From a virus, in the IMG/VR virus record IMGVR_UViG_3300032047_000003, positions 32,001-96,000 of that record: a DNA stretch of 64,000 nucleotides, one strand, 5' to 3'. Within the stretch, counting starts at the first letter, position 1. Each line of letters opens with the position of its first letter. Of the stretch, positions 29,901-49,826 are shown piece after piece. The notes below the pieces were generated by a model. It had not been told where the DNA came from and did not search any database. It saw only the letters and a program-made list of their open reading frames with translations. A program made the position numbers and the translations under genes.

Positions 29901-32900
29901 GTCAACATCACTCTTGAAGTTCGAATGCAGCCTTGTCATTAATTCTTCGGCTTTTGTAGAGTAGTACTTACTTAATGCAGAATTTGATCGATTTATAAGC
30001 ATTGACGTGGCTGCCAGCTTGTTTAAAGTCTCTGCAGAAAGTTTACCTGTTGGATTTCCGAAAAGATCAAATTCTTTAGTATATATTCCCGTTGAAGTAG
30101 GGTTTCCAGTCTTTAGACTCAGGCCATCCACCTTAATGGACTGCGATCCATAATGCGCAGATCTAAAAACCGCTTCAGTCCCTACTTCAATTCCCGATCC
30201 GATAAGACCGTAAGGAGTAAGTCTCGCCACATCTTTTCCAGTTTTTAGTGATCTTGCAACATCGTACACTAATAATCCTCCCCCTACCCCTTTTGCAATC
30301 GCCGCACCATTAGAAGCGCTGTAATCGAGTTTGTCAGGGTTATACTCTCCGTGAGCCGTAGTCTGAAACATACCTCCAAAACCTCTTTCAATAGAATTGA
30401 GGCCTACATTGAAGCCAGATCGAAGATCGTCTAGTCCGAATTCATTAATAATTCTTGGTTCTAAAAACCACTCGGAATACTGTTCAAAATATGACTCCAA
30501 CTGCTTGAACATTATGAATTTTTGAATCTTAGGAGGAGCGTCTTTATACGCGTCTTTTGAAAATTTCATATAAGCGTATGACTTAAGCAAAGTGAAATTA
30601 TTCTCAAGTAAATCCATTCCTCCAACTTTTGCCAAATTAATAGTATCCAAATAGTTAATATATTTTCCATGAACTTGATCCCGAGCATCTTTAAAAGCCA
30701 AAGCTCTTAAAGTTAATTGGGTTACAGTCGTCCCATCAAAAGCACTTCCTTGATCTTCCCAAAATAGAGAGTTAAGTCCGGTATTCATTGCCCCACCCCA
30801 ACCCATAGAACCTGATGTCGTTTCAAAATTTCCCAATCTTTGAACATTCGAAGATAAAAAAGTATTAATCGCTTTTTCATCTTCTGGATGAACGTTCCAT
30901 ATCGCAGTGGGTCCTGGAGTCACATGTTCGATCCCCTTATCTAACCTAAGATAAAGTTGTTCCGATATATTAAAGTTATGACTCAATTCTTCAGTTTCAC
31001 CAAGAAGATGATCTGCTATAAAGGACGGACCAAACACAGGAATGCCTCCCTGCAGTTCAATCTTCATGTAGTCATGGAGCAACTGGTCTACAGGGTGAAG
31101 GGGCGTATACATTGAATGCCCTCCGCGAGAATAAACTAAGGTGTTTTTATTAACGATTCCCCTTGCCTTCTTATGTATTTCTGTTATTCCTTGAGTCTCG
31201 ACAATAGGAATCTCCTTAAATAAAAAACCTTGCGCCCATCCTCCATCCGCGGCTTCTTCTCTATATGCGCCAGGTTTTGAAATATTTTGCAGAATTGGAT
31301 CCTCGGACAAATTGTTTTCCTTAGAAATGTAATCATAAAGGATTTCATTTAAAAGGTCTTGCGCCCTGATATACAGGTCCTTGGTGAGTTGAGAACGAAC
31401 CGCGTCGTTATAAAGTCCCGCCTCCACCGCTGCATTCCACGCACGCTCAGCCAAAGCCCTACATGCTAAGAAATCATTCCGAAAATTATTTCCATCTGCA
31501 AGAACCCTGTTGCCGTCTCTATCAATGTAAAAAGGCATCGTGTCGTTGCCTATAATTTGTTTTCTAAAATTGTATATAATGGCCAATTCTTCTTGTTGTT
31601 TTTTATCCGCATTGTTTGGCAGGCCGTTGGTATCTATATTCAAGTTTATTAAATCTTCTTGTTTTATTTCTATACTCGCATCTGTTTTTATACCTAACCT
31701 TTGATACTCGTCATTCAAACCACTTGATACCAACCTTATGACTTCGGAACTGGACAGTTCAATATTACCCGAGCTGCCGATTGCTAAAAGAAATGTTGTA
31801 GAAAGAGCTCTATTTAACTCATAGTAGAAAGAAGCTTTAAGTGCGCTATCAGACCCTGAATTACTTGCTTTAAAATATTCTACTAAATCCACAGGGGTTT
31901 CAATTTCGGAAATTTCTGGAGCACTTCCATCAGCTGGCCCTGTAACTAAATTGAAAAAGAAAACGCTTGCAATTTTTTCGTATTCTTCTTCTAGATTGTC
32001 GTACTCATCATATAGAACTCCGTAGTCTATACTTTGCTGGAATCGCTCTAAATCTCCTTTTGTCCAACCTAGAGCTCCGTTAAGGCTATCAAAAACTCCA
32101 TCTCCAACAACTTTTTCTTTAAGGAAATTATAGTTATAGTAAATATAATTTCTCCATAAAGAAGGACTAGCATTTAAATAATAACCTTCTACTTCAGATT
32201 CTTCTCCAGAGACATCGCTAGAGTTTATACTCCATTTATTTAAATCATATAAAGTTTCGTATGCTACTTTTTTCGAAATACCGCCGGCACTTTCTTCTGC
32301 AATCGTATGCCGTATTTTGCTTTCTATCGTCCCTAAAAGTTGAATAAAATAAATTAATTCATTTATTGTATTTTCACCAGTAAGAGCTTCTCTATCCTTA
32401 AACCAAGGGTAATCATCATAGAACTCTCTAAAATCCTCTTCTTCTAAATAAGAAAAGAACCCACCGTCTATGGTTTCAATCTCTTCCCCCGCATTATAGT
32501 ATTGCTTTACTATGCCTTCAAATTCATCTTCCCCTATCATATTTATAACTTCCTCTCCAAATCTGCTTTGTGCTATTTGTAACACTTTGTCTGAATCAGG
32601 CATAAGGTAGCCATTGTAGCTTACTTGAGGAGCAGATGCGTCAGCACTAAGCCGAGCAGGCGAATAGGATTTCTCTATAAAGTCTTTTGTATCAAGATCG
32701 TATTCTAGCACAGAATACTCTCCATTTTCCCATTTCCCCTTAAACTCTTTCAAATAGTTAATGACAAGAGCTTTTTTTGCTTCATCTTTAAGGCCTTCAT
32801 AAGAGGCTTTTTTTATGGCCAGTAATACGTCTGAATACTCTATATCTTTCTTGATTAAACTCTTTCTTTCCTTTACTACTTGCAGTTGCTCCACCTGAAA

Positions 32901-35891
32901 GGGATTAGTTTCAGAAAGCTCCATTAGCATCAAATATCTTCCTGGAAAGCCTTCAACATTGCTCACTTGCGAACGGTTCACAACAACCCTTGGAGTTATG
33001 TCGACTCTTGTAGATGCGTCGAATTCGTTATCTTCATTCAATGTAAAAGACATGTCTACTGCTTTGAAACTTCCCAGAAGCCTAGTTAAAAAAGTATTCA
33101 AAGAAAAAGCATGACTGTCTGGCGCTTCCCTAAAATCTCTTGCTTGTTTTTGCAGCCTGTTTAAAACAGAGTGCAAATGTTTCATCGGAAGGCTCATTGA
33201 ATCCAAACCGTTGTCGCTTAATCCCGAATCAAAACTTTGAATTTCAAAAGCATAACCTGGCTCCATTGAGCCCATGTGCTGTGTTGTGGGAAATTCGTAA
33301 CCCACTATTGGTATGCTAGCCACGATATTGGAAAAAGAAGCAGAGCAAGAAGTTACAAAAACTTCTTGATGGACTTTTTTGCTTCCAAGTTTGTGATATA
33401 TCTCTTTTCTAATGTTTTCGTAATTCAAAATACTTGGGTCTGCTTGCAACCCTTTTTGAAATTCAAACATCTCTTGCATTAAAGCTGCGTCTTCGTTCGA
33501 ATCCAATATAGAGCTTAAGTTAGTTAAAGGAAGGTATTCGTTTTTATATAAAATATTTCCTGGACTACCACCTCTTAAGTAAGGTTGAAACCCAAGTTCG
33601 CTTAATTTAATCATTTTATTTATATACGTTTTAAAAATTAAATTTTCATCTTTAGTCAACGACTTAATGTCTATGTCTTTTTTCATTTGAAAATTATTTG
33701 CGTATGCTTCTACATCGGTTTTCAATCCTATCTTACTTGGGCCTTCTGGCTTTGATTCTTCTTTTGAAAATTTATGCATTAAGAGCGGATATGGCGGTAG
33801 CGCTTTCTTGCCTCCCGCAGCAAATACCCTTATTTCAAAATGCAAATGCTCTCCTTTAGAACCTCCCGTATTCCCCATAAAGCCAATAATGTCTCCTTTT
33901 TTGACCTGTTGACCTCTTTCTACAGCAATAAAAGCTAAATGCGCGTATTTGTGATAGAATACTTCGCCACCTCCAGTAGTGTCACTACTGGATAGCTCTG
34001 TGTAAAAACCATAGCCCGAAGCATTATTTTTTACAAATTCGACCACTGCGTCTTCCACTGCAAAGATCGGAGCTACTCCCTTCCCTTGAATAGTCCTAAG
34101 AGCGCTCTTATGATCATCAGTTGCAAAAGGCTTACTTGAATCTGCTATAAAAGTTTCAAATTTGTCTTTAAAAGATCTTATTTGACCCCTTGCTTTAGAA
34201 GTAGTCCCGCTAACTTTTTCACCTTTTAAAACCTTTTTTAAATCTTCGTAACTCATGTAAGCTTCTTTCTTTACAGCAAGATCTATACCTTTATGAGGCC
34301 TGTTTTTTTTCTTTGATACTGGGTGTATTGGTCTAATCCCATAACCGTCTGTTATAACTGCAGTAGCTTTTTTATCTATTAGAGAGCCTAGGGGCGGGTA
34401 CAAAGTTCCGCCGGAGTCTTCGTATTCTTGAATTGTTAAAATATTCTGACCGTAGCCTGTAAAACTGTAATCCTCTGGACTCGTTTTCGTTCCAAAATTC
34501 CATATTTTACTTACGTCTTTCGAGTTGACGTATTCTCTTCCGTATGAATGTCCATTTACTTTTCCAGTCTTGTACATTCCCTTTAAATTAAGCTGTCTGT
34601 TGTTAGGGAAAGCATAACTGGATAAAGGTACTATCTTGACTTCTTTTAAAAATTCTGCTTGAAGGTATTTTCGCTTGCACCTTTCTACGAATGGGGGCAT
34701 GTTAAGTCGAACAAAACCTCTGTAATTTAATTCAAAAGAAGCGTGATGTGAATGCATCTTAGATAAAATGGAATTTACAATTGAACTATCTTCCAAATGA
34801 AAAGATTGAACTTGATACCAAAGGAAGTTGTCGTTATCTACCGAACTGCTTGTTCTGTGTCCTTTTGTAAATTTTAAATAAGAGTTACTGTATTCAGGTC
34901 CCTTAGAGTTAGCTTCTGCTTCTTCCACGCCCCACTCAGGGTGATATTCTGAAAAAACATCAATCCCGAAATCCGAAAACAATGCTTCAAACTGCAAGTC
35001 GTTAATATAACGCTTGTAGATATTACTGTGGTAAGCAAAAGTTGCAACAGAAGGAGACATGTTATCTGGAAGCTCCATTCCGTCCATGAGAACTCCAGAA
35101 AAATTATTTAAACTATTTTCTAAACTCATATTGTTTGTTGAAGCGTCCAGTAGTGAATTGAAATCCTTATACCTTAAATGCGGATAGTTTTTATAATGTT
35201 TTTTGTCAATCTGCATGTCCATATACCCCCTTTTTAATTCAGGGCCTATTACAACTGGAATGGTTCTTTGAATCCAACTCGCTCCTGACGATATTGGCAA
35301 GGTGTAATAGTCTTTTTTATAGAGGTAGTTTGGAGTATAAGGCAAATAATTAAACCATTTCATGTCAAGTTTAACAATAAACGTACCTGGCAGCCCCGCT
35401 GCTTCGTTTATGTGAAAGTTGGTAACAACAAATGCCATCTGTTGGAAAATGTTATCGCCTTTTTCTGGACTCAAAGAAGGGTCTATTGCATCTTTTATAA
35501 AATTGTTTTGCACGCTAATGAAAGGTGAATTTCTTATTTCTACGATAAGTCTATGCAAGTGAAGAAGCAAGTCTGGAGTGAATATTATATTCACGGTAAC
35601 TTGACAAAAACCTTGCCCGCTCGGGACTTTTGTACTTTTCGAACTTCTTAAAGTTTTCCAGTTCCAATAAACGTCTTCTTTTGATATGTTTATATTTGTA
35701 GGCGGAATATTAAGAGCAATGTCATTGATGATAAAATTAGATTTTGGGTCAATTGTATAAACTATATTGTCGCTATTCTCGTTAGTAACATTAGATTTCC
35801 TTAACGAAGATTTGCCTCCTGGCAAAGCACTATTTTTATTGTAAGAATCTCGAAACAACCCTTTTCCTTTTTGCAACTTACTGCTTCCCAT
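23916..35891 (-). CDS. Giant baseplate hub/tail-associated lysin with M23 metallopeptidase (3991 aa)
   Basis: M23 motifs HKGIDL, YAHL, GDIIGFMGNTGGSKGEHLHFEIR at ~33820-34370. Hub-like (gp27/gp44/VgrG-type) motifs in the C-terminal third: RPGMNIQLRAGYSN...VQSFGTEL, YSGEISILGDPSVKPWD...GPVEVKSVTHIFSFETGYITEI. Confidence 0.8.
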   Translation of the reverse strand: MGSSKLQKGKGLFRDSYNKNSALPGGKSSLRKSNVTNENSDNIVYTIDPKSNFIINDIALNIPPTNINISKEDVYWNWKTLRSSKSTKVPSGQGFCQVTVNIIFTPDLLLHLHRLIVEIRNSPFISVQNNFIKDAIDPSLSPEKGDNIFQQMAFVVTNFHINEAAGLPGTFIVKLDMKWFNYLPYTPNYLYKKDYYTLPISSGASWIQRTIPVVIGPELKRGYMDMQIDKKHYKNYPHLRYKDFNSLLDASTNNMSLENSLNNFSGVLMDGMELPDNMSPSVATFAYHSNIYKRYINDLQFEALFSDFGIDVFSEYHPEWGVEEAEANSKGPEYSNSYLKFTKGHRTSSSVDNDNFLWYQVQSFHLEDSSIVNSILSKMHSHHASFELNYRGFVRLNMPPFVERCKRKYLQAEFLKEVKIVPLSSYAFPNNRQLNLKGMYKTGKVNGHSYGREYVNSKDVSKIWNFGTKTSPEDYSFTGYGQNILTIQEYEDSGGTLYPPLGSLIDKKATAVITDGYGIRPIHPVSKKKNRPHKGIDLAVKKEAYMSYEDLKKVLKGEKVSGTTSKARGQIRSFKDKFETFIADSSKPFATDDHKSALRTIQGKGVAPIFAVEDAVVEFVKNNASGYGFYTELSSSDTTGGGEVFYHKYAHLAFIAVERGQQVKKGDIIGFMGNTGGSKGEHLHFEIRVFAAGGKKALPPYPLLMHKFSKEESKPEGPSKIGLKTDVEAYANNFQMKKDIDIKSLTKDENLIFKTYINKMIKLSELGFQPYLRGGSPGNILYKNEYLPLTNLSSILDSNEDAALMQEMFEFQKGLQADPSILNYENIRKEIYHKLGSKKVHQEVFVTSCSASFSNIVASIPIVGYEFPTTQHMGSMEPGYAFEIQSFDSGLSDNGLDSMSLPMKHLHSVLNRLQKQARDFREAPDSHAFSLNTFLTRLLGSFKAVDMSFTLNEDNEFDASTRVDITPRVVVNRSQVSNVEGFPGRYLMLMELSETNPFQVEQLQVVKERKSLIKKDIEYSDVLLAIKKASYEGLKDEAKKALVINYLKEFKGKWENGEYSVLEYDLDTKDFIEKSYSPARLSADASAPQVSYNGYLMPDSDKVLQIAQSRFGEEVINMIGEDEFEGIVKQYYNAGEEIETIDGGFFSYLEEEDFREFYDDYPWFKDREALTGENTINELIYFIQLLGTIESKIRHTIAEESAGGISKKVAYETLYDLNKWSINSSDVSGEESEVEGYYLNASPSLWRNYIYYNYNFLKEKVVGDGVFDSLNGALGWTKGDLERFQQSIDYGVLYDEYDNLEEEYEKIASVFFFNLVTGPADGSAPEISEIETPVDLVEYFKASNSGSDSALKASFYYELNRALSTTFLLAIGSSGNIELSSSEVIRLVSSGLNDEYQRLGIKTDASIEIKQEDLINLNIDTNGLPNNADKKQQEELAIIYNFRKQIIGNDTMPFYIDRDGNRVLADGNNFRNDFLACRALAERAWNAAVEAGLYNDAVRSQLTKDLYIRAQDLLNEILYDYISKENNLSEDPILQNISKPGAYREEAADGGWAQGFLFKEIPIVETQGITEIHKKARGIVNKNTLVYSRGGHSMYTPLHPVDQLLHDYMKIELQGGIPVFGPSFIADHLLGETEELSHNFNISEQLYLRLDKGIEHVTPGPTAIWNVHPEDEKAINTFLSSNVQRLGNFETTSGSMGWGGAMNTGLNSLFWEDQGSAFDGTTVTQLTLRALAFKDARDQVHGKYINYLDTINLAKVGGMDLLENNFTLLKSYAYMKFSKDAYKDAPPKIQKFIMFKQLESYFEQYSEWFLEPRIINEFGLDDLRSGFNVGLNSIERGFGGMFQTTAHGEYNPDKLDYSASNGAAIAKGVGGGLLVYDVARSLKTGKDVARLTPYGLIGSGIEVGTEAVFRSAHYGSQSIKVDGLSLKTGNPTSTGIYTKEFDLFGNPTGKLSAETLNKLAATSMLINRSNSALSKYYSTKAEELMTRLHSNFKSDVDDKGNLKIESMLGTDVKYLSETANESRYAKGAALSNNFRFRDIRTDLEVLKEINLSNYINADDELKKLEAFRNELKSFVEEVKKNREVCYALGIDFLNESYNYVPPSERYSGIECYPDLGLPNHPFYTQSNFETGAAFYMWDIYNDGGAKITKEFLDEIERNSKVYLEGAYKHLKKMESKSITAIRVADSDATDVTNDNTSGLSTNNEGTDNVLYPYDTYYDSNGHYVLYKNLGEANSPFFTGQAKRNDLTDSLKKEIVTLIQESEGKDSFVFKFDQNGDGSSYDNSYVAETREQVVAQRTSLYRYLRFIDADGNRSITKPWSAKITDGASGFGGMLYDSAATVGGWAVGIDTSYIMDGQQGVQSPSDAISGFNRVHEITGVEPLKAIVKNNSYDSSALYVHENGNLLEEVNSVAMLSDEVMQIENMFGNGAGYVGDLIEEKSENSKAVETLLNDVKLRGLGAQTNYNQTFSLEGLNSLAKASSARLFTEKKKLSRAYPTFKLFFIEEDEFESRFINMDDFYSFNGVRSFSVSRSRENAADSAIISLQNIAGTLDGTRKGATIDVDYFSKKRVERIKRENKSSEKKDRNTLVSYSADNSNLESDTDQPFSAVVLRPGMNIQLRAGYSNNPDNLEVLISGRVTDISWGGAGDTCEIVVQSFGTELVQHLKGIEEDSKNKEYFATHQVLGSLMLSPELKHFGRWETGRIFQYGEAQDARLDFFRYKDNSDPSALQGYKQWAGFLSDWGLETAIASVGIGISFLFTKRLGLGKVGLPGFGLRGFTVKAVEGGSKLAPRTAWRLPFSYIRTAVASLMNPRFFPFVSGSLGRLASRVGLNRVGSLMRGGFSTVSGYTALRRGLAQGGDAALGAFKHLFIGIGDDLVRAASSVVKTVAAEVKVLSAATTSLTQTALRKSLLSVETALKAVPRGSSYAVFKTLTKEIDEIFAIIGRTAVSGADDVLANPQLTKRVFDLFKASERFMIAAVSQPSFARSVYLQGFRGAGGSTPLFLGTTALSATFNSTAIFFKTSLFFFAVDYIGGGIFGKSFTDTHKEYRRLYQNWFTKELVYFKLNPSDDNLYPPSPIYYMHNLTHIEKTVSEKVGMLFQMAFSDFSGAEGKSAMEFLKDWQNVNPLLYLKRVHPDACRYKLQNSTIWDVFHEMTLRHPGWIYSAVPYGKEFRYTMFFGIPSQRYWSKPATPGFIQRMNSVRELLTANVDDEDDLKRFFKQGYNEDYKTKKISDAEYEEFKKKARKNLMSKFKGKARNLLAVANQVKTTYNRAEYHAAMSKRKFTDTWNIAIGVYNPDAIVTEADLKDRQNYYETNSWDETGSNLLFLMEEMLKKPKRYSGMSQRELKRKFERMAAKGEARLKLKDKARSIETDIRADETFSDINDRKKLIEFINNRADHRFSTFGSKIENFLADENNVDERYVEGQTISKDDLELNRNTIELRGRLLKEYLTGLENRFVPFRNYHLIRSRENLIRNNFTVSQRNAVNSVNVYYKDMHDANNKKSVFMKASSNIPDSNLISQNVDKYDIRDRAMATRYGIGSLIYGVKEMYSGEISILGDPSVKPWDVCFLFDDQSKMSGPVEVKSVTHIFSFETGYITEIVPNAIVVGNESSSWPVLEALKVYVGGAIARERSVIDRGSSSDASSVNEQYGGDKNLPAILTTSKDKEELDTAIKRMNESTSRELGEIGYGTLGQRLGIIPESPDVSLNIDGFNLSYEASSSMIERYSDLVRNGIIEYKEVVDIDKNIFGETTNTENNVKATVNLEKLFKDLGNQNPSLNSDFSDFQDQAVSTVESLFDLGVSAFFAADALNPTTGTAGQFATKAIGLTGAGLSLLLLGKWKLNAGGLLKAAGVGGSGGVYMAGVDNQYYYNSSQVLDRFSSSYLIAAPIIFSKLLESEAVTIVPIVKEGKPLFAGVSTRSPTSVWQNILGDIVSGIDDAFRGVFDTIDENEAMGTEFYKHIVSRNPERANDPGLKYLKDSGQLLQYIKGN

Positions 35892-35893
35892 TT

Positions 35894-38800
35894 TTAATCT
35901 CCAAAAAACTTTCGTCGAATATAATTTTCACTTACAGGACCCCTTGTATCATTTATAGTAAAATGACTTTGTCCTCCCATTGCTCCCACAATGTAAGATA
36001 GCTCTGATACTGATCTCATATTATGAGCCATTCCTCTCATTTGAAAACCACCTGGACTGTCTGCTAAAACTTGACCTATATTTATCTGCCTATTCATTAT
36101 ATCATTTTCTATCGAATTCTGCATATTTTGAACTGCTTCTTGACTCGGTCCCGCCTCAAAAGCGTTACCTTCTCTGATAGCGGCTTTTAATTCTGGCGAA
36201 ACCATTTCGCCTTCCATTGATAAAGGCACAGGGTCGTAACCACCATAACCCAAACCCGATCCAAGGGCCATAGTTGCAGCTAAACCAACCCCAAGACTTC
36301 CAATCCTTCCTCTGGAGCCAATTTCTACAGCATTCGTCCTCATAAGAGTACCAATAGTCCTCATCGCCTCTTCAAGGTCACTCATTGTGGTCTGCTCTAT
36401 ATTAGAACCCATTAGTTGCCCTTGAACATTGTTCCTTAGAAGCCCTTGAAACATTTCGTGATAAGCACCGAGTTCTTGCTTGGAAGCAATACTTAAACGT
36501 CTTTCTGTTTTTGCATGCAAATAACCTGCTTCGCTTACATGAGGAAGCAAGCTTCTTAGATAAGGCATTACATAGCTAAGAGCGTCTTCTGCAGAATTGG
36601 TTCCTCCCGGAGCAAACAGATTTATAACTTTTTGACCTTCCAGACTGTCCGCTAGTACGTCCACCCCACCTCCCACTACATTTGTCTTACCAAATGTAAC
36701 ATCGAGATCTACTTCTCTAAAAAGATAGTCTTTAAAAAGTTTTTCGACAGTATCAAAAGCACTAACGTCTCCTTGTATTGCTGCATTAATATTTCTCGAT
36801 ATTGCTTCAGCCAAAGGTATATCAGTTGGAAGTTTTTTGGCTTTAATAACTGCGACTTCTTGTATTGCGGACAACAAGTTCAAAGCATCAGATGCAACCT
36901 TTCTTGTTGATTCATCAGCAGTATTAACGATTCCCAATCTTAAAGCGTCAAAACTAACATCAATTGGCCCTACGTTTTTACCCAGCTGCTCCTGTCTTGC
37001 CTTTACAGCGATTTCTTCAATAAGACTTCTATCAACATCCCCAATGGATCTTCTGAGATTGTCAATACCTTCTCCTGCCATACTAAACAAAACCCTTGTT
37101 TTAGCTCTATAAAGAAGTTTTTGTTTTGCTATGTTTTCTAAATTAGCCTTACCCTTCTTCCCTAAAAGGTTTATTTCTTTTTCTCCTAGATTGCTTCTAG
37201 TAGGAAATAAAAGCTGGTAAATGTCCCCGTCAAAGTCACCTATCATACCACCCGCTAAAGATAAGTCCATTCTTTCCATCTTGCCACCATAGTGAACATC
37301 TACCATAAACTGAGGAATACTAATACGCCCACCGCCCACTCCAGGAGAAATTTCACCCATATGATTTCTCATTGCATCGAAAAAACTTCTTAGAACTTTA
37401 TGCCTTTCCCCTTTGACTGTAACTCGATTTTTAATCTTTGTCATTCCCGCTTGGAGTTCTTGGTCGTAGTTGCCGCTAGCAATCGCTTGATCAATTCTTG
37501 TATTCTTTCCCTTGATATCGTCAATGCTTTGCTGTAGCTCAGCCATACTTTCTGGATCTGACATACTCAACAAGCTTTCTTCCATGCTTTCGATTTTTAA
37601 CAAATTCCTTCCTTTCATATAATCCAGCACATGTTGATCACTAGGTGTTTGTATATTTTTCGGTCCTTGCTTTACAAAAGTCAGCAAATCTTTAAAACCT
37701 TTAACTTCATTACCTGTTAAATTATAAAAGTCCTGCGCAGCCCTTTTGCCGCCTTTAGTTTCAAGAAGCTTTTCAAAAATATTATCCTTCCCGCGCAATT
37801 CAGAAAGTTCTCTAAACGCTCCAACGAACTCTACGTGGGCGCTCCCCATCACGGGATGTCTCGATGCAATAGCAATATTTGCCAAACTTGGGCTAGATTG
37901 ATCATATGAGCTTAGAAAGAAGTATTGAAGGGCATCTCTTGTTGCCCTTTTGCTATCTACCCTAGCTTTTTTAACTGCTTGCTTTGGATCAACTCCTTTT
38001 GATACTGCATTTTGCATTACATATTGAGCATTTACTCCAGATGAAAAACTAGACATTGCATTCAAAAAAGAAGTACTGTCTTGAAAAACAGCATGACCGA
38101 ATGTTACTCTTTGAATTTTTCTCATTAAATATTTTTCTTCATTCGTATAATTGGTAGACCCTAAAGACTTAGACAGATAACCTTTCATTTCGTCTTTACC
38201 GATAACAACATTGTTTAAAATATTCATCCCCTTTCTTTTTGCTGCATCTCTTTCCTTTTGACTTATTCGAGTGTTCTTGCTTTCCCTCATGGTAGAAACG
38301 TAAGTATCGTACGTTTGTTTATCTAAAGAAGAAGCAAAATCTGAAAATATGTCTACTCGTTTTTGAAGACCAACAGATTGGTTCATCCTGTAGTTGCCGC
38401 TTTTTGTTTTTTCGAAAACGTTTCCAGTTATTTCTATTTCTCCGCTTTCCCTGCCTATCTTCAAACCTAAAAACTCATCATGAAACCTACCAGTGTCTAC
38501 AGTTCCACCTAACCCAAAAGTAGATCCAGACATTTTACCTCTTAAAGTCTTTCTAAAAGAGATACCAAAAAATTCACTCATTGAATCTTTAAAATCGTCC
38601 AGCCCTCTAAGGGCCATGCCTATCGCTTCAGTATTGCTTTGTGCTTTAGAAACTTCAACTAAACTTCTACTAAACCTACTTAGCGTTTTGATATAATCTG
38701 CGTCTATTTCTCTAAAAGCATCATCAGTAGGAATCAAAGTTCTTTCTCGTTCAAGAAGCTCCAAGAAGTTATCTCCACCTGGAAGATATATCTGTGAAGG

Positions 38801-41800
38801 AAAACCAGAAGAAGCCATTCTGTTTGTCAGCGTTTTGTCTCCTGACAAGTCTAATAAAAAACCACCTTTTTGTTTTGAAAGAAAACTTCTAATTTCTTTT
38901 TCTGATGAATTCTGAACAAACTCATCCACTGAAACTCTTGGAACGTCTTCTTCAAATAAACTTCTGCTTGCAAAAGACTCCATCGTCTTTGAATATTCCC
39001 TTGCCATTGCAATATCTTCACCAGTATTTTTCTTTCTCGAAAGAATAGAAAACATAAAGTTGGAAACTTTTTCTTTGCTAACGCCCATTTCCTGAGTTAA
39101 TTTATGAGACAAAAAATTATATAAACGCGGCTCAATTGATCCCATATTCTGTCCCAAGCTAGAACTTTGAGGACCGATTTCCAAATTAGTCAAACCTAAT
39201 GCGACACCTTTCGAAACTTGTTTTTTTAATTTTTCTATGTACTTTTCGTAAGAACTGTTTTGGTCAACTGGAAGGCCCATTTCTCTATGTGTGTCTCTTA
39301 CTAAATTTTCAAAATCGCTTCCAGATACGCCTTCAACCGAATCGCCAAACATGCTTTTTGCAAAATAACCAAAAGTCAATCCCTGCTTTTCTATTGCTGT
39401 ATCGCTAATGTCGGTACCATATTTTTTAACTGCTAATTTTATTGCATTTTTTACCAAAGTATTATTTTGCTGAGATACGCTAAGATCGTTAAAAGCTTCT
39501 AGCGACATACCCCCTCTTTTGGTATCTGTCACTAAGCTTTCCAACTCTCTGCTAAAATCACTTTTAGCCACTCCCATTAAGATATCCAACGAGCTGCCAA
39601 TTTGCTCTGCTAAGTTCATTGATGCTTTTTTCAACATAGCCGCATCAGTTGTAAAAACGCCGCTAACATTATTATTGGCTGAACCAACTCTTCCAATAAT
39701 TGTATCGGTCAAACTAGAGCTTATTCCAGCTCTTTGTGTCAAAGTAGACCTCATGGTCTTTTCATTTGTTTTTTCAATTGTACCCTTGAACATAGTAGAA
39801 AAGATCTTCATAAAAGGATTATCTGTATCTCTGAAACCAGTAATCGAATACTTCCTAAGACCTCTTCCTTGACTGTCCAGTTCTTCCGTCAAGCCAAACT
39901 CTAAACCTTCAAGACCCGCATATCGCGGCAAGTATTGACGCCTTCCATCAATCATTCCAAGGTACAATCCAAAATTATCTTCCTTTGCTCCAAACAATCT
40001 AAAGAAATCAGTTATATCAGAATATATTAACTGGTTGGATTCAATTCTAACTTTACCTTCTAGACCTTTTTTAGTAATTAAATCGCTAACCACCTTGGAA
40101 GTTTTTTGAGTTTCTCCTCCCTTCACAACGCTTCCAAAAAAATCTGTAACAAATTCGCCCTGAGCATTTGTTCTCGTTCCAATATTGATATTTCGAATGC
40201 TTTCATCCCCCGTAGCAACTCTATGCTTTAGCTCTTCAAAAAGCACATTAGAGGCTCCCCCAAATTGTTGTGGATCGTAAACAGGTTTATTTATAGCTTT
40301 AGTAACTACTGTTTCTCCAAAATAATTTGCGGTACCTTCTCCTATTCCAAAAATATTTCTTCCCAAATTAAAAACATCTTTATCTCCTTTTCTTGACCCA
40401 GCTAAGACGTCCATAACAGCAATGCCCTTTGGTCTTCGCATTTCTACGCCTCCTTCATAAAGATTGATTGGCGGCGATTGATTTCCGGGATGCATATTGT
40501 ATCCAGCCCTACGTTTGCCTCCTCCCTGTCTTAAAAACTCTTCTCTATTGTACATCTGCCTAAATCTTGCAGTAATCGGCTGAGTTGCTCTATTGGTTAA
40601 AAGCCCTCCAAACTGCCTTTGAGCAGTTTCTATAACTCCGTCAGCAAAATTGCCCCCATACATCTGTTGCAAGAAAGCGCTACGCAATCCAATATCTCCC
40701 ATGCTTTGATTAAAATTACCAGAAGTAAATGGATTTGCTGAAAAGCCAAATAGATCCATTACTTGAGAAAGCATAGGTCTGAGATCCTTTTGATCTGCAG
40801 GCCCCAATCCTAAAGGGTTTATTATCTTCAAGCTATGTCCAGTTTGCCTATACTTTTGCTCTAGAAACATGGAGGTAGTTTCAGAGCCCGTAGAGCCTGT
40901 CCGAGCGCCAAACCTATCGATAAACTCTAAAGATTGCTGCATATTTTGATTTATTAAACTTATATCTCTAGAAGAAACTTTATCAATTCCACCTCTTTTG
41001 TCGACATTCGATATAAACATTTCCGCCAACGCTTGCTCCGGAGTCATAAACTTTCCTTTGGAAATTTTATCTAAAATCATTTGTTTCCTACCTGCAACGT
41101 CTTTTATTTTTGCTACCTCATTTAAATCTGACGCCTTAGCGTAAACTCCAGAACCCGCATACATGGTATTCATATTTCCATATCTAACTGGAAAAACTCC
41201 CTGACTGCTAAAATTACCCAAGCTCAAAGGTAAACTTTGAAGCTTTCTTCCACCTCTGTGTATTTCTACATAAGGCACCACTCCCGTTGTACTGCCTACT
41301 CTTTCCGTTCTAGTGTTAAATTGAAACGAGACTCCCGATCCAGAAAAAGCACTTTCTAAAGCTTGAAAAACTTTTGTGTTTTTGTATTTATTTATTAAGC
41401 CACTGCCTGATTCTATTGAATTCAATCCAGGTTGTATTCCCGAAAGGTTAACCTTTTGAGGTTGAACTAAAAGATCTGAAACGGGATGAAAAGGACTACT
41501 AGCGTATCCTGAAATTTTACTAATCCTATTGCTTCCAGAGGTTTCCGATTCAACAATTTCGTTAATTATTTCTTTTAAAGAATCAGAGTTTTGAGTTAAA
41601 TTTAATTCTCCTTGAAAAGACTGTTGAATTAAGTCTTCGACTACTTTCATCATAGTTCCAGTGCTATCTGAAATATTTGGATCTGCTAATACGGTTTTTA
41701 AATTAGCCAAAAAAGCAGTTTGTTCTTCCGCTTGCCTGACTGCTAATTTTCCTAAAAACTCATCAACATTTTTGAATCTTTTAATCGCGTTTTCTTTTGC

Positions 41801-42058
41801 AGCGGCTTTCACTTGAGACCTGACCATCTGATACCGGTCGAAAGACTCACCTACTTTCGAATGCACATCTCCCATCTGATTAGTAGGTAGATTTGCTAAA
41901 AAATTAGGATTATTAGACTTCATAGATTGAACGCTTTGATAGGACGCAAATCCTAATGGTCCTAAACCAAAAGCAGTATTAAGTAAAGCATTTCCTTTTG
42001 CTTTTAAATCATCAACAGTGTCTGAATCTTTATTAAAAAACGGTAATTTAAAAGCCAT
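35894..42058 (-). CDS. Putative single-chain two-barrel (double-psi beta-barrel) virion RNA polymerase with tape-measure-like termini
   Basis: GDFDGD (DFDGD at 37223-37237), RHP (~37853-37861), LRGK (~38534-38545) and MKIFSTMFKGT (~39779-39811) occur in beta-then-beta' order. Start moved from the GTG at 42064 to the ATG at 42058, which follows a GAGGTG SD. Confidence 0.75.
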   Translation of the reverse strand: MAFKLPFFNKDSDTVDDLKAKGNALLNTAFGLGPLGFASYQSVQSMKSNNPNFLANLPTNQMGDVHSKVGESFDRYQMVRSQVKAAAKENAIKRFKNVDEFLGKLAVRQAEEQTAFLANLKTVLADPNISDSTGTMMKVVEDLIQQSFQGELNLTQNSDSLKEIINEIVESETSGSNRISKISGYASSPFHPVSDLLVQPQKVNLSGIQPGLNSIESGSGLINKYKNTKVFQALESAFSGSGVSFQFNTRTERVGSTTGVVPYVEIHRGGRKLQSLPLSLGNFSSQGVFPVRYGNMNTMYAGSGVYAKASDLNEVAKIKDVAGRKQMILDKISKGKFMTPEQALAEMFISNVDKRGGIDKVSSRDISLINQNMQQSLEFIDRFGARTGSTGSETTSMFLEQKYRQTGHSLKIINPLGLGPADQKDLRPMLSQVMDLFGFSANPFTSGNFNQSMGDIGLRSAFLQQMYGGNFADGVIETAQRQFGGLLTNRATQPITARFRQMYNREEFLRQGGGKRRAGYNMHPGNQSPPINLYEGGVEMRRPKGIAVMDVLAGSRKGDKDVFNLGRNIFGIGEGTANYFGETVVTKAINKPVYDPQQFGGASNVLFEELKHRVATGDESIRNINIGTRTNAQGEFVTDFFGSVVKGGETQKTSKVVSDLITKKGLEGKVRIESNQLIYSDITDFFRLFGAKEDNFGLYLGMIDGRRQYLPRYAGLEGLEFGLTEELDSQGRGLRKYSITGFRDTDNPFMKIFSTMFKGTIEKTNEKTMRSTLTQRAGISSSLTDTIIGRVGSANNNVSGVFTTDAAMLKKASMNLAEQIGSSLDILMGVAKSDFSRELESLVTDTKRGGMSLEAFNDLSVSQQNNTLVKNAIKLAVKKYGTDISDTAIEKQGLTFGYFAKSMFGDSVEGVSGSDFENLVRDTHREMGLPVDQNSSYEKYIEKLKKQVSKGVALGLTNLEIGPQSSSLGQNMGSIEPRLYNFLSHKLTQEMGVSKEKVSNFMFSILSRKKNTGEDIAMAREYSKTMESFASRSLFEEDVPRVSVDEFVQNSSEKEIRSFLSKQKGGFLLDLSGDKTLTNRMASSGFPSQIYLPGGDNFLELLERERTLIPTDDAFREIDADYIKTLSRFSRSLVEVSKAQSNTEAIGMALRGLDDFKDSMSEFFGISFRKTLRGKMSGSTFGLGGTVDTGRFHDEFLGLKIGRESGEIEITGNVFEKTKSGNYRMNQSVGLQKRVDIFSDFASSLDKQTYDTYVSTMRESKNTRISQKERDAAKRKGMNILNNVVIGKDEMKGYLSKSLGSTNYTNEEKYLMRKIQRVTFGHAVFQDSTSFLNAMSSFSSGVNAQYVMQNAVSKGVDPKQAVKKARVDSKRATRDALQYFFLSSYDQSSPSLANIAIASRHPVMGSAHVEFVGAFRELSELRGKDNIFEKLLETKGGKRAAQDFYNLTGNEVKGFKDLLTFVKQGPKNIQTPSDQHVLDYMKGRNLLKIESMEESLLSMSDPESMAELQQSIDDIKGKNTRIDQAIASGNYDQELQAGMTKIKNRVTVKGERHKVLRSFFDAMRNHMGEISPGVGGGRISIPQFMVDVHYGGKMERMDLSLAGGMIGDFDGDIYQLLFPTRSNLGEKEINLLGKKGKANLENIAKQKLLYRAKTRVLFSMAGEGIDNLRRSIGDVDRSLIEEIAVKARQEQLGKNVGPIDVSFDALRLGIVNTADESTRKVASDALNLLSAIQEVAVIKAKKLPTDIPLAEAISRNINAAIQGDVSAFDTVEKLFKDYLFREVDLDVTFGKTNVVGGGVDVLADSLEGQKVINLFAPGGTNSAEDALSYVMPYLRSLLPHVSEAGYLHAKTERRLSIASKQELGAYHEMFQGLLRNNVQGQLMGSNIEQTTMSDLEEAMRTIGTLMRTNAVEIGSRGRIGSLGVGLAATMALGSGLGYGGYDPVPLSMEGEMVSPELKAAIREGNAFEAGPSQEAVQNMQNSIENDIMNRQINIGQVLADSPGGFQMRGMAHNMRSVSELSYIVGAMGGQSHFTINDTRGPVSENYIRRKFFGD

Positions 42059-45000
42059 ATTCACCTCTAATGTATTGCTCTATAATAGCACTTCTGTCAT
42101 CATTCATGTAGAAAACTCCAGAAGTATTTGTTCCAAATCTATTTACATTCATTTGCCCTGTAAAAGGAACGTTGTCCAATTCAGATCTACCTGCAGTTCT
42201 TAAAACAGAACCTAAGTTTAAGCCTCTTCCCATTTCTTCTACAATTGGGTTTTCTACGCCTTCCAAATAGGGCATTCGGGCCTGAAGCCTTAATCTTTGA
42301 TTATACATGTCTAAGTCTCCTAAATCGATTCCAGTTCTATCTGCATATCTTATCTTTACGTCATCCATTTCTACATCTTCGTGCCATCCCACCCAGTCTG
42401 TGCCTGGCATAGGTTTTTCGTAAAAATATTCTTCCAAGCTGGCCAACTTCATTTTTAAATACCTTTCATCAATTTGATTTTTATAGCCTGGGTTTAAAGT
42501 TGGATCGCCAGCATCCAATCTACTCCAAAGACCTATGTAAAGGTCCCTGTTGTCTTCCGGAACCATTTCAAGAATTCTCTCTCTATCTTTTTCTGAAGCC
42601 ATAGAAAAAGCATCAAAAAAAGCTTTTTCTCCTTCTGGCAATGCTTCGTAAATAGCCATAGCATGAGCCTGAGGATTAACCCCAAAAGTAGTCTTAGAAG
42701 CCCTGTAAAGAGCCTGCCTTTTTAAATTACTATCTCCCATTGCTTCAGCTCTATCTGCAATTTTCATCTGTTGAATGAACTGCAATTTGTCAAAATATTC
42801 ATTAGTTTCATTTGCTTTTCTTCTAAAACCTGGGACGTCGCTATAGCCCATTATATGAGCAGCAGAATAGAAGGAAGGTCTAAACCAATCACGAATAGGC
42901 TTATCCCAAAAAGAATTAACCGTACCATAAAGTCTTTCTTGCTCATAAGACTCTATAGCAGAAATCCCCATGTAAGAAGGATCTGTTAATAGCTTTTGCG
43001 AAGGTCTAAATCCCATTGGAACCAAATATTCTGCAGGGGCTAGCCCTGTTTTTAAAACACTCCTAGCAGTTCTACCTATAGCCCTTGTTGTATCGCCCAG
43101 AAAGGGGATGTCATATGCATCTGGATCCATTTCCCTAATACTTTTGTCAGACATTTTTTCATTAAGCATTTTGTCCGTTTTATCCATGTAGGATTCAACA
43201 GCTCTATTCATTTTGCCCGAAGCTCTTTGCTTGTACATGTTTTCTCTAAGCATAATAAACTCTCTAGAGTGAGGAGCTATATCTGCTAGAATGGAATATT
43301 TAAAAATATCTGGGTAGTTTTCAGGACTTATGTTTTTTAATTCAGGATGAATAGCAGCATAACCTGCTCCAGGAAGTCTTACCTCGCCATACTTTACATT
43401 TCTATATGGATCTCCATATTTAAACCTATCAGGCATCCAAGTAGGCATTGAATTGACAATTGGATTATAGTGTTGAATCATAGACCTTTCTCTTGGCAGA
43501 AAACGTCTAATCGGTTCAGTAGTAAAGAACCCGCCGCCTAGTTCTTTTTTCCAAAAGTCTTCTTTTGCCGAAAACATTTTACCCGCACTTTCTAAAACAG
43601 GTCTTTGTATTCCAAAAGTTTCTTCTCCCGTAAGAGCTTTTGTATACATGTTTTTAGCCCAACCGGTAAGACCTTCAAGCTCTCTAAACTGATACTGCAA
43701 TTCTCCCGCTACAAAACTGCTGGAAAACGGAGACATTGGCTTGCCAGGGCTAATACCCCCCAGCTTTCCGCTAGGCCCTTTGTATTCGTTTCTGTGAGCA
43801 AACTCAACGTCTCCTTGTTCGTTAACCCTCATAAACTCATTTACATGCATCAACTTTGGAGGTTTAATTAAACGGCCTACCGTGGCTGACAAAAGCTTTC
43901 CAATTACCGGCACATTTTCAAAAGCTCCCCCAGTTATAGGATAGGGCCTGTCGTAGTAGTTTTCTCTTTCCAGTTGATAAGTAAAGTTTTCTAACAAAAA
44001 GTTGTGTATCGGAGATCGATTGACTTTATACCTTGCTTTATCTGTCGCCTGAGACATGTAAGCTACATAGTCATGTGGTCTGAAATACGAAACACCCTTA
44101 CCTTCATAAGAACTTCCGCCGCCCTCCCACCAGCGCCCTTTTCTCACCTCTACTAGTTGCCTTCCAGAGTATATTTCATTAAGCTCTGTAGGACCCTTCA
44201 TAGACCCAAGAAGGCCACCAGTTACAAACTGTTGAGCTAGCAGACCTCCAAGAAATAAACTTCCGTATCTGCCAAATTTAGTTTTATAGTTTAATTTCTT
44301 CGCAGCCTCAGTAAAGCCTTCACCTTCTTTTGTTGCTCCAAAAAACGAATGTATTATAGAAGCGTTAGCAGTTTCAATTTTCTTTCTAATCCCGCCAAAC
44401 ATTGAAGTGTCATCTATATACCTTGCGTCAATTTCTTCAAGCTTTCTTAAAAAAGACTGATTCATCGGATTGTTTAACCCTGATTCCATTTCTTTTTTAA
44501 CTGCAAGTCCTTGCTCGAATCTTAACGACAGCTCTTCTTGAATCGCTGCAAGTCCTTTTTCACCGAATTCCCTTTTGCTGACGTCCATAAGTAACGAAGA
44601 CAATTTCATTCTTGAGAAATTAGATTCAGATTCCAATAACTCTCTAAGTAAAATATTTTCGTCAACCGTCATTGCGTCGATTAACGTTCTAGGCCCTTTA
44701 AAAATTCTATCTGCTTTTTCGGTTAAAAACCCTTCGCCCTTTATTCCTGCTTGCGTAAATTCTTTTGCTACTGGAAACTCTGTAAAAAACATCGATCTTA
44801 CAGATTGCTTTTGGTAGTATCGTAAACCTCTACTAACTAAAGCATTTTCGTCAAATGCAATTTCAGGAGAAATGCCTAGTTTTATTTTTTGCGATTCATC
44901 TAACTTTTCATATATTCTGCTAGAGATAGGTTTGCCACTGGCTCCACTGGCTAGAGCCAAAGAAAGACCTACAAAAGCCCCCGTCTTCCAATCGGAAACT

Positions 45001-46286
45001 CCTGGAAGAATGCCTTCCATAGTCCTCCTGTAAGAATTCATGAATGTGACTTCTCCTAAAGCTGCGGTTGCGATATGAGCATTCTTGTACATGGTATAGG
45101 CGCCGGCTCCAATTCCTTGATCGAAGCCGGGCAGTATAAGCTGAGCTGCAAAAGCAGCGCCTGCAAACATTCTAGTTTTTTTAGGATCTAAAGTTTTAAA
45201 TAGTTTTTGAGCAGCATGCCCACCCGCCAAAGAAGTCGCAGCGGAAAATACAACATTTCCTAAAAAACCAGTTTCACTTCTCCAATAGTCGGCTTCTTTT
45301 AAACCTACTCCCAATGCACCGAGCTTAAAGGCTTTAAAGCCAAACCTCATAAACATTTCAGAAGCCCTTCCAGGCTTAACCGTAAGCCCTAAGCCAAAAG
45401 AGCTTTCTAATTTGCTTGAAAGCCTATTAACTACAGGGACTTGCTCTGTAGCAGTTTCAAGAAGTCTGTTGGTTCTGTCTAAGCCAAAAGCAAAAATACT
45501 TCTAAAGAAAGTAAACTTGTCGTTTGACTTCACAGACTTTATCGGAAGGAACATCGATTTGTTTTCTTTTTTTACGTCATCGATTACTTCTGAATAAGAA
45601 AATATCCTTTCAAATGCTCTTCTAGTATTGGTTCCAAAATCATCGGCAAAGCCTTGAGCCAAACCATACGCATAAGCTACCGGATTCGTAACTGGAAGTC
45701 GAGAGCCAAATCTTCCGCTCCTACTATCGAAAGAAGTTCGTTGAAGCAAAGACACCTTGTTCGAAACAAGACGTCTTTCATCTCCCTGTTCGAAGAACAA
45801 AGAACCTTGAGTAGACCCTTTTTCTATCTCATAGGAAAAGCTATATCGACCCTTGCCTATGTCTAAGAAAGCAGACCCAAACTCTTCTTCAAGAACTTTT
45901 AACTCTTTTCCAAATTCTTTTTCAAGAAAAACTCTAGTCTCTTTAGAAGCAGACATTTTTTCATCAAAAACGTACTTATAGAAACCATCTTTTTCAACTA
46001 AATCAAGTCCAGAAGGCGAACTAAATGGAGATAAAAATTCAGCAGGTCTAAAGGTATTAAGTAAAGCGGCAGGCGAATTATACGCTATTTGGCGACCGTA
46101 CCTTCTAACGTGATCTAGATAGGTTCCCTCTCCGTATTTTATCTGACTTGAAGCAAATGCCGCTCCGCCTAGGAGACCAAGACCTCCTAGGTAAAACGCA
46201 CCTCTTTCGGTAGGGTTTTCGTAAGGTTCATATTGCGAAGCACTGTACAGTAAAGACTCGCTACCATATCCAATTCCAGGCGGCAT
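42048..46286 (-). CDS. Tape-measure-like / ejected membrane-associated protein (1412 aa)
   Basis: Occupies the canonical tape-measure slot right after the tail assembly chaperones; helical-looking, with several Gly/Ala-rich hydrophobic segments (LGGLGLLGGAAFA, FAGAAFAAQLILPG, GAFVGLSLALASG, GSLFLGGLLAQQFVTGGLLG). Confidence 0.6.
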   Translation of the reverse strand: MPPGIGYGSESLLYSASQYEPYENPTERGAFYLGGLGLLGGAAFASSQIKYGEGTYLDHVRRYGRQIAYNSPAALLNTFRPAEFLSPFSSPSGLDLVEKDGFYKYVFDEKMSASKETRVFLEKEFGKELKVLEEEFGSAFLDIGKGRYSFSYEIEKGSTQGSLFFEQGDERRLVSNKVSLLQRTSFDSRSGRFGSRLPVTNPVAYAYGLAQGFADDFGTNTRRAFERIFSYSEVIDDVKKENKSMFLPIKSVKSNDKFTFFRSIFAFGLDRTNRLLETATEQVPVVNRLSSKLESSFGLGLTVKPGRASEMFMRFGFKAFKLGALGVGLKEADYWRSETGFLGNVVFSAATSLAGGHAAQKLFKTLDPKKTRMFAGAAFAAQLILPGFDQGIGAGAYTMYKNAHIATAALGEVTFMNSYRRTMEGILPGVSDWKTGAFVGLSLALASGASGKPISSRIYEKLDESQKIKLGISPEIAFDENALVSRGLRYYQKQSVRSMFFTEFPVAKEFTQAGIKGEGFLTEKADRIFKGPRTLIDAMTVDENILLRELLESESNFSRMKLSSLLMDVSKREFGEKGLAAIQEELSLRFEQGLAVKKEMESGLNNPMNQSFLRKLEEIDARYIDDTSMFGGIRKKIETANASIIHSFFGATKEGEGFTEAAKKLNYKTKFGRYGSLFLGGLLAQQFVTGGLLGSMKGPTELNEIYSGRQLVEVRKGRWWEGGGSSYEGKGVSYFRPHDYVAYMSQATDKARYKVNRSPIHNFLLENFTYQLERENYYDRPYPITGGAFENVPVIGKLLSATVGRLIKPPKLMHVNEFMRVNEQGDVEFAHRNEYKGPSGKLGGISPGKPMSPFSSSFVAGELQYQFRELEGLTGWAKNMYTKALTGEETFGIQRPVLESAGKMFSAKEDFWKKELGGGFFTTEPIRRFLPRERSMIQHYNPIVNSMPTWMPDRFKYGDPYRNVKYGEVRLPGAGYAAIHPELKNISPENYPDIFKYSILADIAPHSREFIMLRENMYKQRASGKMNRAVESYMDKTDKMLNEKMSDKSIREMDPDAYDIPFLGDTTRAIGRTARSVLKTGLAPAEYLVPMGFRPSQKLLTDPSYMGISAIESYEQERLYGTVNSFWDKPIRDWFRPSFYSAAHIMGYSDVPGFRRKANETNEYFDKLQFIQQMKIADRAEAMGDSNLKRQALYRASKTTFGVNPQAHAMAIYEALPEGEKAFFDAFSMASEKDRERILEMVPEDNRDLYIGLWSRLDAGDPTLNPGYKNQIDERYLKMKLASLEEYFYEKPMPGTDWVGWHEDVEMDDVKIRYADRTGIDLGDLDMYNQRLRLQARMPYLEGVENPIVEEMGRGLNLGSVLRTAGRSELDNVPFTGQMNVNRFGTNTSGVFYMNDDRSAIIEQYIRGEYGF

Positions 46287-46291
46287 AATAC

Positions 46292-46963
46292 TTATCTCCT
46301 TCTACTGTCCAATTTCCTCGCTTGACCTTTGGTTAGGTTCGAGCTCTTTTTGCTATCGGCTATATTATTATAAGCGTCCTCAACATCCATTGGGTTTTGA
46401 TTCTTCATTATAGCAGCATTTTCTGCTGCAAAGTCAATTCCATGAGATGGTTTATTTTTCTTTTTAGGCTGCTTGCCCACTTTGCTTAAATCCAAAAGCT
46501 CATAGTCGCTTTGTTTTTTCTTTAAAACATTTTCAGAAATACTAAACTTTTCAATAAACTCTACTCTCGTCCAAGACTCTATATCTTCTAAAGAGTACAT
46601 GGGGAAAGCTGTTACTATCACTGCTCTCATATACTCATGCAAAGTATCGGGCGGATTCTTTCTTCTAAAAGAACTTATATCTGAAATGATCGTTTTCGTA
46701 TCGCAATCACCAGATAAAAAAAGTATAAGCTTACCCAAAGAAACAGTTATTCCAGCATGCAAGGATTCAGGCAGCAAGCCTGTGTTACCTACATAGCAGT
46801 ACTTGAAAACTTGTTCTTCTAACTCGTTTGGAAGGAAAATCCCAGACGATCTTAGCGAAACAATCTTTCTGTACTCTTTTATAGATAAAAGCTTGTATCT
46901 AAACACTCCAATTCCAGGAATTTGAGTAGAATAAAGGTCTGTTTTGAGTAAGCTTTCTAACAC
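46292..46963 (-). CDS. Tail assembly chaperone (paralogue 2)
   Basis: FRYKLLSIKEYRKI...FKYCYV...HAGITVSLGKLILFLSG mirrors the upstream chaperone; GTG start 4 nt after the upstream stop. Confidence 0.65.
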   Translation of the reverse strand: MLESLLKTDLYSTQIPGIGVFRYKLLSIKEYRKIVSLRSSGIFLPNELEEQVFKYCYVGNTGLLPESLHAGITVSLGKLILFLSGDCDTKTIISDISSFRRKNPPDTLHEYMRAVIVTAFPMYSLEDIESWTRVEFIEKFSISENVLKKKQSDYELLDLSKVGKQPKKKNKPSHGIDFAAENAAIMKNQNPMDVEDAYNNIADSKKSSNLTKGQARKLDSRRR

Positions 46964-46967
46964 GGAA

Positions 46968-48518: not shown

Positions 48519-48521
48519 TAA

Positions 48522-49736: not shown

Positions 49737-49742
49737 TGCAGT

Positions 49743-49797
49743 CTCCAAAAAGAATATCCTTCTCCTGGATATTATAACATATGTCAAGAGAAGGATA
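49743..49797 (-). terminator. Probable intrinsic terminator after tail tube gene
   Basis: Minus strand TATCCTTCTCTTG...CAGGAGAAGGATA (13-bp stem with one G-U pair) followed by TTCTTTTT, 30 nt after the tube stop codon; loop is long. Confidence 0.6.
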
Positions 49798-49826
49798 AAA
49801 TTGTTTTTTAAACTAGAAAGATACTA

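Follow-up and report, generated by a model that had tools for sequence, protein, structure and literature searches.

The stretch of DNA considered here (the window) comprises 64,000 nucleotides, positions 32,001 to 96,000 of the IMG/VR virus record IMGVR_UViG_3300032047_000003, and is one long co-directional structural operon of an uncultured marine phage with a contractile tail, carried by the minus strand. Its tail module contains three consecutive giant open reading frames (ORFs), A, B and C, the second of which is the subject of this work: a preliminary description, made from the sequence alone, had proposed that an ORF of ~2054 residues at this place encodes a virion-packaged, single-chain two-barrel RNA polymerase (RNAP). 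The ORF is real. It spans 35894..42064 on the minus strand (2,056 residues) if read from a GTG codon, and the ATG codon at 42058, ahead of which lies GAGGTG, is the likely start, giving the 2,054 residues first described; a database protein of 2,054 residues is identical to ORF B read from this ATG. The ATG lies 11 nucleotides before the ORF A stop codon, and ORF C starts 2 nucleotides past the ORF B stop codon, in a different frame. Residue numbers given below for ORF B count from the GTG at 42064 and are therefore higher by 2 than those counted from the ATG.

The tail-module context of a myovirus, also put forward in the preliminary description, is borne out: sheath, tube and chaperone-like genes lie upstream of the trio, and an M23/hub-related protein (ORF C) and a Baseplate_J gene lie downstream of ORF B (Table 1). 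Sheath, tube, tube paralogues, the two genes in tail-chaperone position and ORFs A, B and C keep this order in all eight of the distinct related contigs. The tape-measure slot, which extends from the tail chaperones to the hub, holds two giant ORFs, A and B, the former being better conserved among related contigs (37-40% identity) than the latter (24-31%). ORF A belongs to no family in Pfam or PHROGs scans, and a search of the ESM Atlas with it provided no lead. Note that the family of the tube paralogues is listed in PHROGs as 'major head protein' (phrog_9206), apparently by mistake.

Table 1. Features of ORF B and neighbouring genes (coordinates in the window; fractions refer to the 59-sequence alignment described in the text)
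Feature	Coordinates	Strand	Remarks
ORF B	35894..42058	(-)	2,054-aa single-chain two-barrel RNA polymerase candidate (model and fold matches)
N-terminal Gly-rich hydrophobic segment, residues 31-42	41939..41974	(-)	P36 conserved; inside residues 1-60, modelled as disordered
Alpha/beta region, residues ~230-594	40283..41377	(-)	weak likeness to lobe/protrusion of second-largest RNAP subunit
P496/R500/Q503/R507 motif	40541-40597	(-)	near-invariant; within the alpha/beta region
Beta-like barrel, residues ~671-764	39773..40054	(-)	strand-rich; ends with invariant K753 and K760
MKIFSTMFKGT, residues 752-762	39779-39811	(-)	
LGQNMGSIEPR, residues 970-980	39125-39157	(-)	39126-39158 in the preliminary description
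SxEPR motif, residues 976-980	39125..39139	(-)	in helical region after residue 764; E978 56/59, R980 58/59
Clamp-like region, residues ~1032-1175	38540..38971	(-)	aligns with N-terminal clamp part of beta'-type subunits
LRGKMSGS, residues 1174-1181	38522-38545	(-)	
Beta'-like double-psi barrel, residues ~1176-1621	37202..38539	(-)	GK 1176-1177, R1402-x-P1404, DFDGD; split by long helical insertions
ASRHPVMG, residues 1400-1407	37844-37867	(-)	
DFDGD, residues 1610-1614	37223..37237	(-)	putative Mg-binding aspartate triad D1610, D1612, D1614
Long helices past catalytic loop, residues ~1636-1790	36695..37159	(-)	invariant E1736 and K1743
C-terminal Gly/Ala-rich hydrophobic segment, residues 1922-1943	36236..36301	(-)	family-conserved
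C-terminal INDTRxP tail	35936..35956	(-)	~15 residues before ORF B end; similar NDDR tail in ORF A
Portal	61656-63320	(-)	
Major head protein	57065-58372	(-)	
Tail sheath	50502-53396	(-)	964 aa
Tail tube	49827-50489	(-)	220 aa
Two tube-like paralogues, after tube	within 47730-50489	(-)	421 and 262 aa; compare 0305phi8-36 gp141/gp142
Two tail-chaperone-position genes	46292..47717	(-)	223 and 249 aa; the latter resembles 0305phi8-36 gp143/gp144
ORF A, first of giant trio	42048..46286	(-)	1,412 aa; homologue of gp145 and ME3_35
Gly-rich hydrophobic start of ORF A	~46180-46230	(-)	
Aromatic-x-ND[DT]R tail of ORF A	42051-42110	(-)	
ORF C, third of giant trio	23916..35891	(-)	3,991 aa; related to hub proteins gp147 and ME3_37
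Peptidase_M23 domain of ORF C, residues 604-689	33825-34082	(-)	
Baseplate_J/wedge gene	21147-22376	(-)	after small genes downstream of ORF C

The five motifs quoted in the preliminary description are all present in ORF B, in the order given there, one pair of coordinates being 1 nucleotide off. A two-barrel polymerase needs two basic residues in one barrel and, in the other, an RxP motif and an aspartate triad (PMC7824862, PMC10770324). In an alignment of 59 sequences, with identities to ORF B down to 16%, the two lysines K753 and K760, the RxP proline P1404 and the aspartates D1610, D1612 and D1614 are each found in 59/59 sequences, as are E1736 and K1743 further downstream. R1402 is an arginine in 58 sequences and a lysine in one, G1176 is kept in 57, and K1177 is a lysine in 52 and an arginine in four. 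The invariance of DFDGD, RxP and both lysines among homologues, which the preliminary description had singled out as a check, is thus observed save for a single R1402 substitution. As judged from these sequences, no positions of this fast-evolving protein are better conserved than the residues required by two-barrel polymerases, which follow each other in beta-then-beta' order, and the five motifs are, given such conservation, more than a product of chance. The SxEPR motif is reminiscent of the GEME region in beta. A single D[FY]DGD is present over the six frames of the window, and the DFDGD of ORF B is the sole RNAP-like DxDxD within the 111.6-kb contig, in which no second DxDxD polymerase was found; these 111.6 kb cover all but about 43 kb of the phage, for which the database has a 154-kb contig.

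Structure prediction agrees with the motif order. The AlphaFold2 (AF2) model of residues 660-1790, based on the 59-sequence alignment, has a predicted local distance difference test (pLDDT) score of 88.9 and a predicted template modelling (pTM) score of 0.87, and residues 60-1790 as a whole are predicted to form compact alpha/beta domains (pTM 0.71 and 0.87). In this model, K753 and K760 sit on the final strands of the strand-rich N-terminal domain; order and fold together suggest that they are equivalent to the beta lysines. We searched 48,161 chains with VIA-align, which is independent of Foldseek: two-barrel polymerases gave the best superpositions of the core model, which took in both barrels, the first three matches spanning the two as one rigid body. 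The top matches include QDE-1 and RDR2, and P74-26 gp62 was matched as well. The core of ORF B is thus predicted to contain two double-psi beta-barrel domains that face each other, and, since the superposition is rigid over both barrels, the lysines and the aspartates may face each other as they do in QDE-1.

A second look, which took in Foldseek's top 1,000 chains, pointed to the cellular enzymes. Indeed, 47 of the 50 best chains were bacterial beta' or eukaryotic largest subunits, and these alignments (258-366 residues) were colinear, model positions 373..1129 running along beta' positions ~14..1250. The model therefore appears to hold the beta' elements in their proper order, namely the clamp, RxP, the DxDxD barrel and the bridge-helix region, for which the long helices past the catalytic loop are the candidate. 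In the N-terminal part of ORF B, every long alpha/beta alignment was with the second-largest RNAP subunit, the resemblance to lobe and protrusion being weak. The proposal that ORF B is a single-chain two-barrel RNAP is supported by the AF2 model, by its superposition on two-barrel polymerases and by the invariant catalytic residues.

ORF B is a member of a large family. A word-based search retrieved eight relatives with 24-78% identity, and eight distinct loci, mostly marine, came to light when viral and metagenome contigs were scanned. When a family profile covering the core (residues 600-1790) was scored against 1.84 billion representatives, 178 clusters were recovered at E <= 0.001, including 135 at E <= 1e-30. 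These clusters, defined at 50% identity, come mostly from marine metagenomes, most of their members have 1,650-1,800 residues, and none of the ten that were looked up has a functional name. A scan of GTDB genomes with the family pattern detected no relative and hence gave no prophage or host clue.

How does ORF B compare with known two-barrel polymerases? Gp96 of the Thermus phage P23-45, also present in P74-26, G20c and TSP4, unites in one polypeptide a virion two-barrel RNAP and a tape measure with membrane and metallopeptidase domains (PMC10770324; PDB 8H2M/8H2N). Like gp96, ORF B is predicted to be a single-chain two-barrel protein that contains DFDGD, and its gene, too, belongs to the tape-measure region of a tail module; in both cases, a peptidase-bearing giant tail protein is fused or directly next, and pre-early transcription following tail-mediated delivery is the proposed role. 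Unlike the gp96 fusion, ORF B is a separate ORF with its own stop codon, the M23 peptidase being part of ORF C, and the tail is contractile, whereas that of P23-45 is a siphovirus tail. ORF B also has a beta'-type clamp-like region, in contrast to gp96, which has been described as flat and without a clamp (PMC10770324). Sequence similarity between the two is not detectable. The screen for viral RNAPs reported in the same study (PMC10770324) required a spacing of 20-100 residues between RxP and DxDxD; the spacing in the ORF B family, 108-209 residues, falls outside this filter, which may be why such families get missed.

The crAss-like Cellulophaga phage phi14:2 provides the other virion precedent, gp66 (GenBank gp077; 10.1101/2020.03.07.982082; PDB 6VR4). 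Both proteins have ~2,100-2,200 residues, with DxDxD about two thirds along (1361/2180 for gp66, 1610/2056 for ORF B), both are encoded by the middle gene of a trio of consecutive giant genes (1797, 2180 and 1421 aa in phi14:2, where all three encode virion proteins; 1412, 2054 and 3991 aa here), and both escape ordinary sequence searches. They differ in setting: phi14:2 is a podovirus whose gp66 is assumed to travel inside the capsid, whereas the phage considered here has a contractile tail. P74-26 gp62 and its P23-45 counterpart gp64, as well as QDE-1 and RDR2, are single-chain two-barrel enzymes too, yet they are non-virion proteins and much shorter (their solved chains have 592-995 residues), and no sequence similarity to ORF B was detected; QDE-1 and plant RDR2 are, in addition, RNA-dependent and eukaryotic.

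The cultured phages closest by portal (32-36% identity) are the Bacillus phages Edson, WH1 and 0305phi8-36, the Moorella phage MTATph1 and the Acinetobacter phage ME3. The giant trio has the same order in 0305phi8-36 (gp145-gp146-gp147) and in ME3 (ME3_35-36-37), the middle gene occupying the ORF B slot. ORF A matches gp145 (1e-18) and ME3_35 (7e-54), both virion structural proteins, and ORF C, which has hub-like blocks besides its M23 domain, matches the hub proteins gp147 (1.6e-13) and ME3_37 (3e-16). For ORF B, there is a marginal similarity (8.6e-4) between residues 541-635 and residues 499-600 of gp146. According to GenBank notes, gp145 and gp146 of 0305phi8-36 were found in virions by mass spectrometry. 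ME3_36 (Acinetobacter phage vB_AbaM_ME3, L018:19173-23984, 1,603 aa, 'hypothetical protein') has at residue 1217 a GGDHDQDQ sequence whose position and surroundings recall the GDFDGD loop. The family profile gave nothing significant against gp145, gp146 or ME3_36 (hhalign or hmmsearch), and we therefore do not claim gp146 and ME3_36 as homologues of ORF B. A YonO-like RNAP is reported to be encoded elsewhere in the 0305phi8-36 genome (PMC7824862), so that this lineage may solve early transcription in several ways.

These comparisons bear on the view that ORF B is mainly a tape measure or tail-lumen structural protein, in which case its polymerase-like core would be a relic without activity or serve as a scaffold. 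The slot is labelled 'hypothetical tape measure protein' in 0305phi8-36, the region of weak similarity belongs to that very protein (gp146), and both ends of ORF B carry Gly-rich hydrophobic segments, which are frequent in tape measures. We nevertheless regard this view as very improbable: residues 60-1790 are predicted to be compact alpha/beta domains and not the long helical ruler of a tape measure, and every catalytic residue is invariant despite divergence to 16% identity, which is not expected of a relic.

With its predicted fold, its colinear motif order, its strictly conserved catalytic residues and its conserved position in the tail-core trio, ORF B is in our reading (probability roughly 0.8) a competent single-chain two-barrel RNAP that is borne by the virion, delivered to the host and transcribes the first phage genes. 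The protein would be a Mg-dependent polymerase whose single chain joins a beta-like half, on the N-terminal side, to a beta'-like half; it would act on a DNA template, be produced late, together with the tail proteins, be incorporated into the particle, enter the host along with the DNA, via the tail lumen or from the capsid, and transcribe the earliest phage genes independently of the host polymerase. Packaging is suggested by gene position and by the mass-spectrometry notes on the positional counterparts in 0305phi8-36, and the virion-RNAP reading draws on the precedents of phi14:2 gp66 (10.1101/2020.03.07.982082) and P23-45 gp96 (PMC10770324).

The protein could instead be a true two-barrel polymerase that is not part of the virion (or is RNA-dependent or primer-making), has its gene among the tail genes by accident and works in the cytoplasm after its own synthesis. 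The fold evidence is silent on packaging, QDE-1 and RDR2 among the top matches are RNA-dependent, P74-26 gp62 is a non-virion enzyme, and, as the only RNAP detected in the 111.6 kb, ORF B could be the sole polymerase of the phage. However, ORF B is embedded in a late structural operon whose genes are tightly coupled, between tail chaperones and hub, a position kept in every relative examined, and an enzyme needed early would come too late from such an operon unless carried by the particle. Moreover, ORF B shares a Gly-rich N-terminal and an NDxR C-terminal feature with the structural ORF A, and its clamp-like and beta-lobe-like parts resemble DNA-dependent enzymes. We therefore consider a non-virion polymerase unlikely and favour the virion-borne enzyme.

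A number of results weigh against the latter. The proposed convergence of lysines and aspartates is read from the superposition on QDE-1, and with RNA-dependent enzymes among the top structural matches the template is not settled. The absence of DxDxD from gp146, together with its marginal similarity to ORF B, means that its presence in virions carries over by position only. When the family profile was compared with phi14:2 gp077 by hhalign, the match (E 0.15, 70 columns) covered the DFD loop only, and gp66 is absent from the structural match lists for the ORF B model. ORF B belongs to no family in Pfam or PHROGs scans; searches of PDB sequences gave nothing with the single protein and chance matches only, such as CodY, with the family profile; and tblastn against 50,697 GenBank phage records, with ORF B and two of its distant relatives as queries, matched nothing and hence revealed no cultured family member. 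(The preliminary description had anticipated that the protein would probably be annotated as hypothetical or tape measure.) Finally, a folded protein of ~230 kDa is too big for a tail tube, so that delivery through the tail would need an unfolded or extended state.

In the structure search suggested in the preliminary description, VIA-align led to two-barrel polymerases, but Foldseek found no match for the model in the PDB, just helical-repeat noise, and in BFVD only weak rows (TM <= 0.27). Taken on its own, the empty PDB search would fit an artefact produced by motifs that occur by chance and a model that is over-confident. We find this explanation scarcely credible, since five motifs in canonical order are conserved over 59 to 178 clusters and since, in two independent rankings, RNAP subunits, aligned colinearly and in the right order, account for nearly all long alignments.

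If ORF B is a virion enzyme, by which route is it delivered? Its slot between chaperones and hub, the end features shared with ORF A (a weak indication) and the P23-45 precedent point to the tail lumen; by analogy with crAss-like phages, storage in the capsid could apply as well. ORFs A and B both start with a Gly-rich hydrophobic segment and both carry an aromatic-x-ND[DT]R tail ~15 residues ahead of the C-terminus, kept in eight relatives of each; the match between the two C-terminal motifs is statistically weak (hhalign E 0.031). The Gly-rich segments of the giant proteins are mildly hydrophobic, and a simple hydropathy scan revealed no strong transmembrane helix (mean Kyte-Doolittle value > 1.5) in ORFs A, B and C. 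The shared end features may be a loading or processing signal. One may tentatively imagine, though we would not bet on it, that ORF B and not ORF A fills the tape-measure slot: an entire beta-beta' RNAP would be stored extended in the lumen of the contractile tail, loaded by means of the shared Gly-rich and NDxR signals, expelled upon contraction and refolded in the cytoplasm to transcribe the early genes.

A candidate target for a polymerase delivered in this way is a cluster of small genes outside the window. Eight copies of a hairpin followed by TCTTTTTTATTT, N3-5 and CTTTAGTGGAG occur there in 2.9 kb (contig 108,248-111,084 (+), i.e. L014:13248-16084), one copy of TCTTTTTTATTT-N3-5-CTTTAGTGGAG standing ahead of each small plus-strand ORF; elsewhere in the contig, the element has loose matches only. 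Many of the small plus-strand ORFs share a conserved ribosome-binding site and start (GGAGGTAAATCATGGCAAAA). The repeat looks like the terminator-promoter cassette of an early-gene cluster, and CTTTAGTGGAG may be the promoter used by a phage polymerase.

The contig also encodes a split DNA polymerase III alpha subunit (DnaE) with an intein, RecA, a primase-helicase, ThyX and the large terminase TerL. DnaE is distributed over at least three ORFs outside the window (L012:3499-4812, 5371-6987 and 9077-10330), with an intein-splicing domain at the end of the second piece. A 1,420-aa ORF adjoining the large terminase gene (L014:7706-11968 (-), likewise outside the window) contains a staphylococcal-nuclease (SNase) domain at residues 1128-1236.

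To our knowledge, experimental proof of virion-borne two-barrel RNAPs is limited to crAss-like podoviruses and the siphovirus P23-45. We found no paper describing the ORF B family in the literature searched and regard the family as new, no direct comparison having been made with the alignments of the 23 known RNAP families (PMC10770324). The arrangement is also new, with a separate RNAP ORF, equipped with a clamp-like region, in the giant trio of a contractile tail; the strategy itself is known. ORF B founds a sizeable family, with 178 clusters at 50% identity, that has no library annotation. If ORF B is injected, host-independent early transcription would be far commoner in large myoviruses than recognised, genes in the trio slot annotated as 'tape measure' or 'hypothetical' would need re-reading, and the passage of a ~230-kDa enzyme through a contractile tail would pose a mechanistic problem. 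Should the tail-lumen route be the true one, tail-delivered polymerases would be common in 0305phi8-36-like myoviruses and not a curiosity of one Thermus phage.

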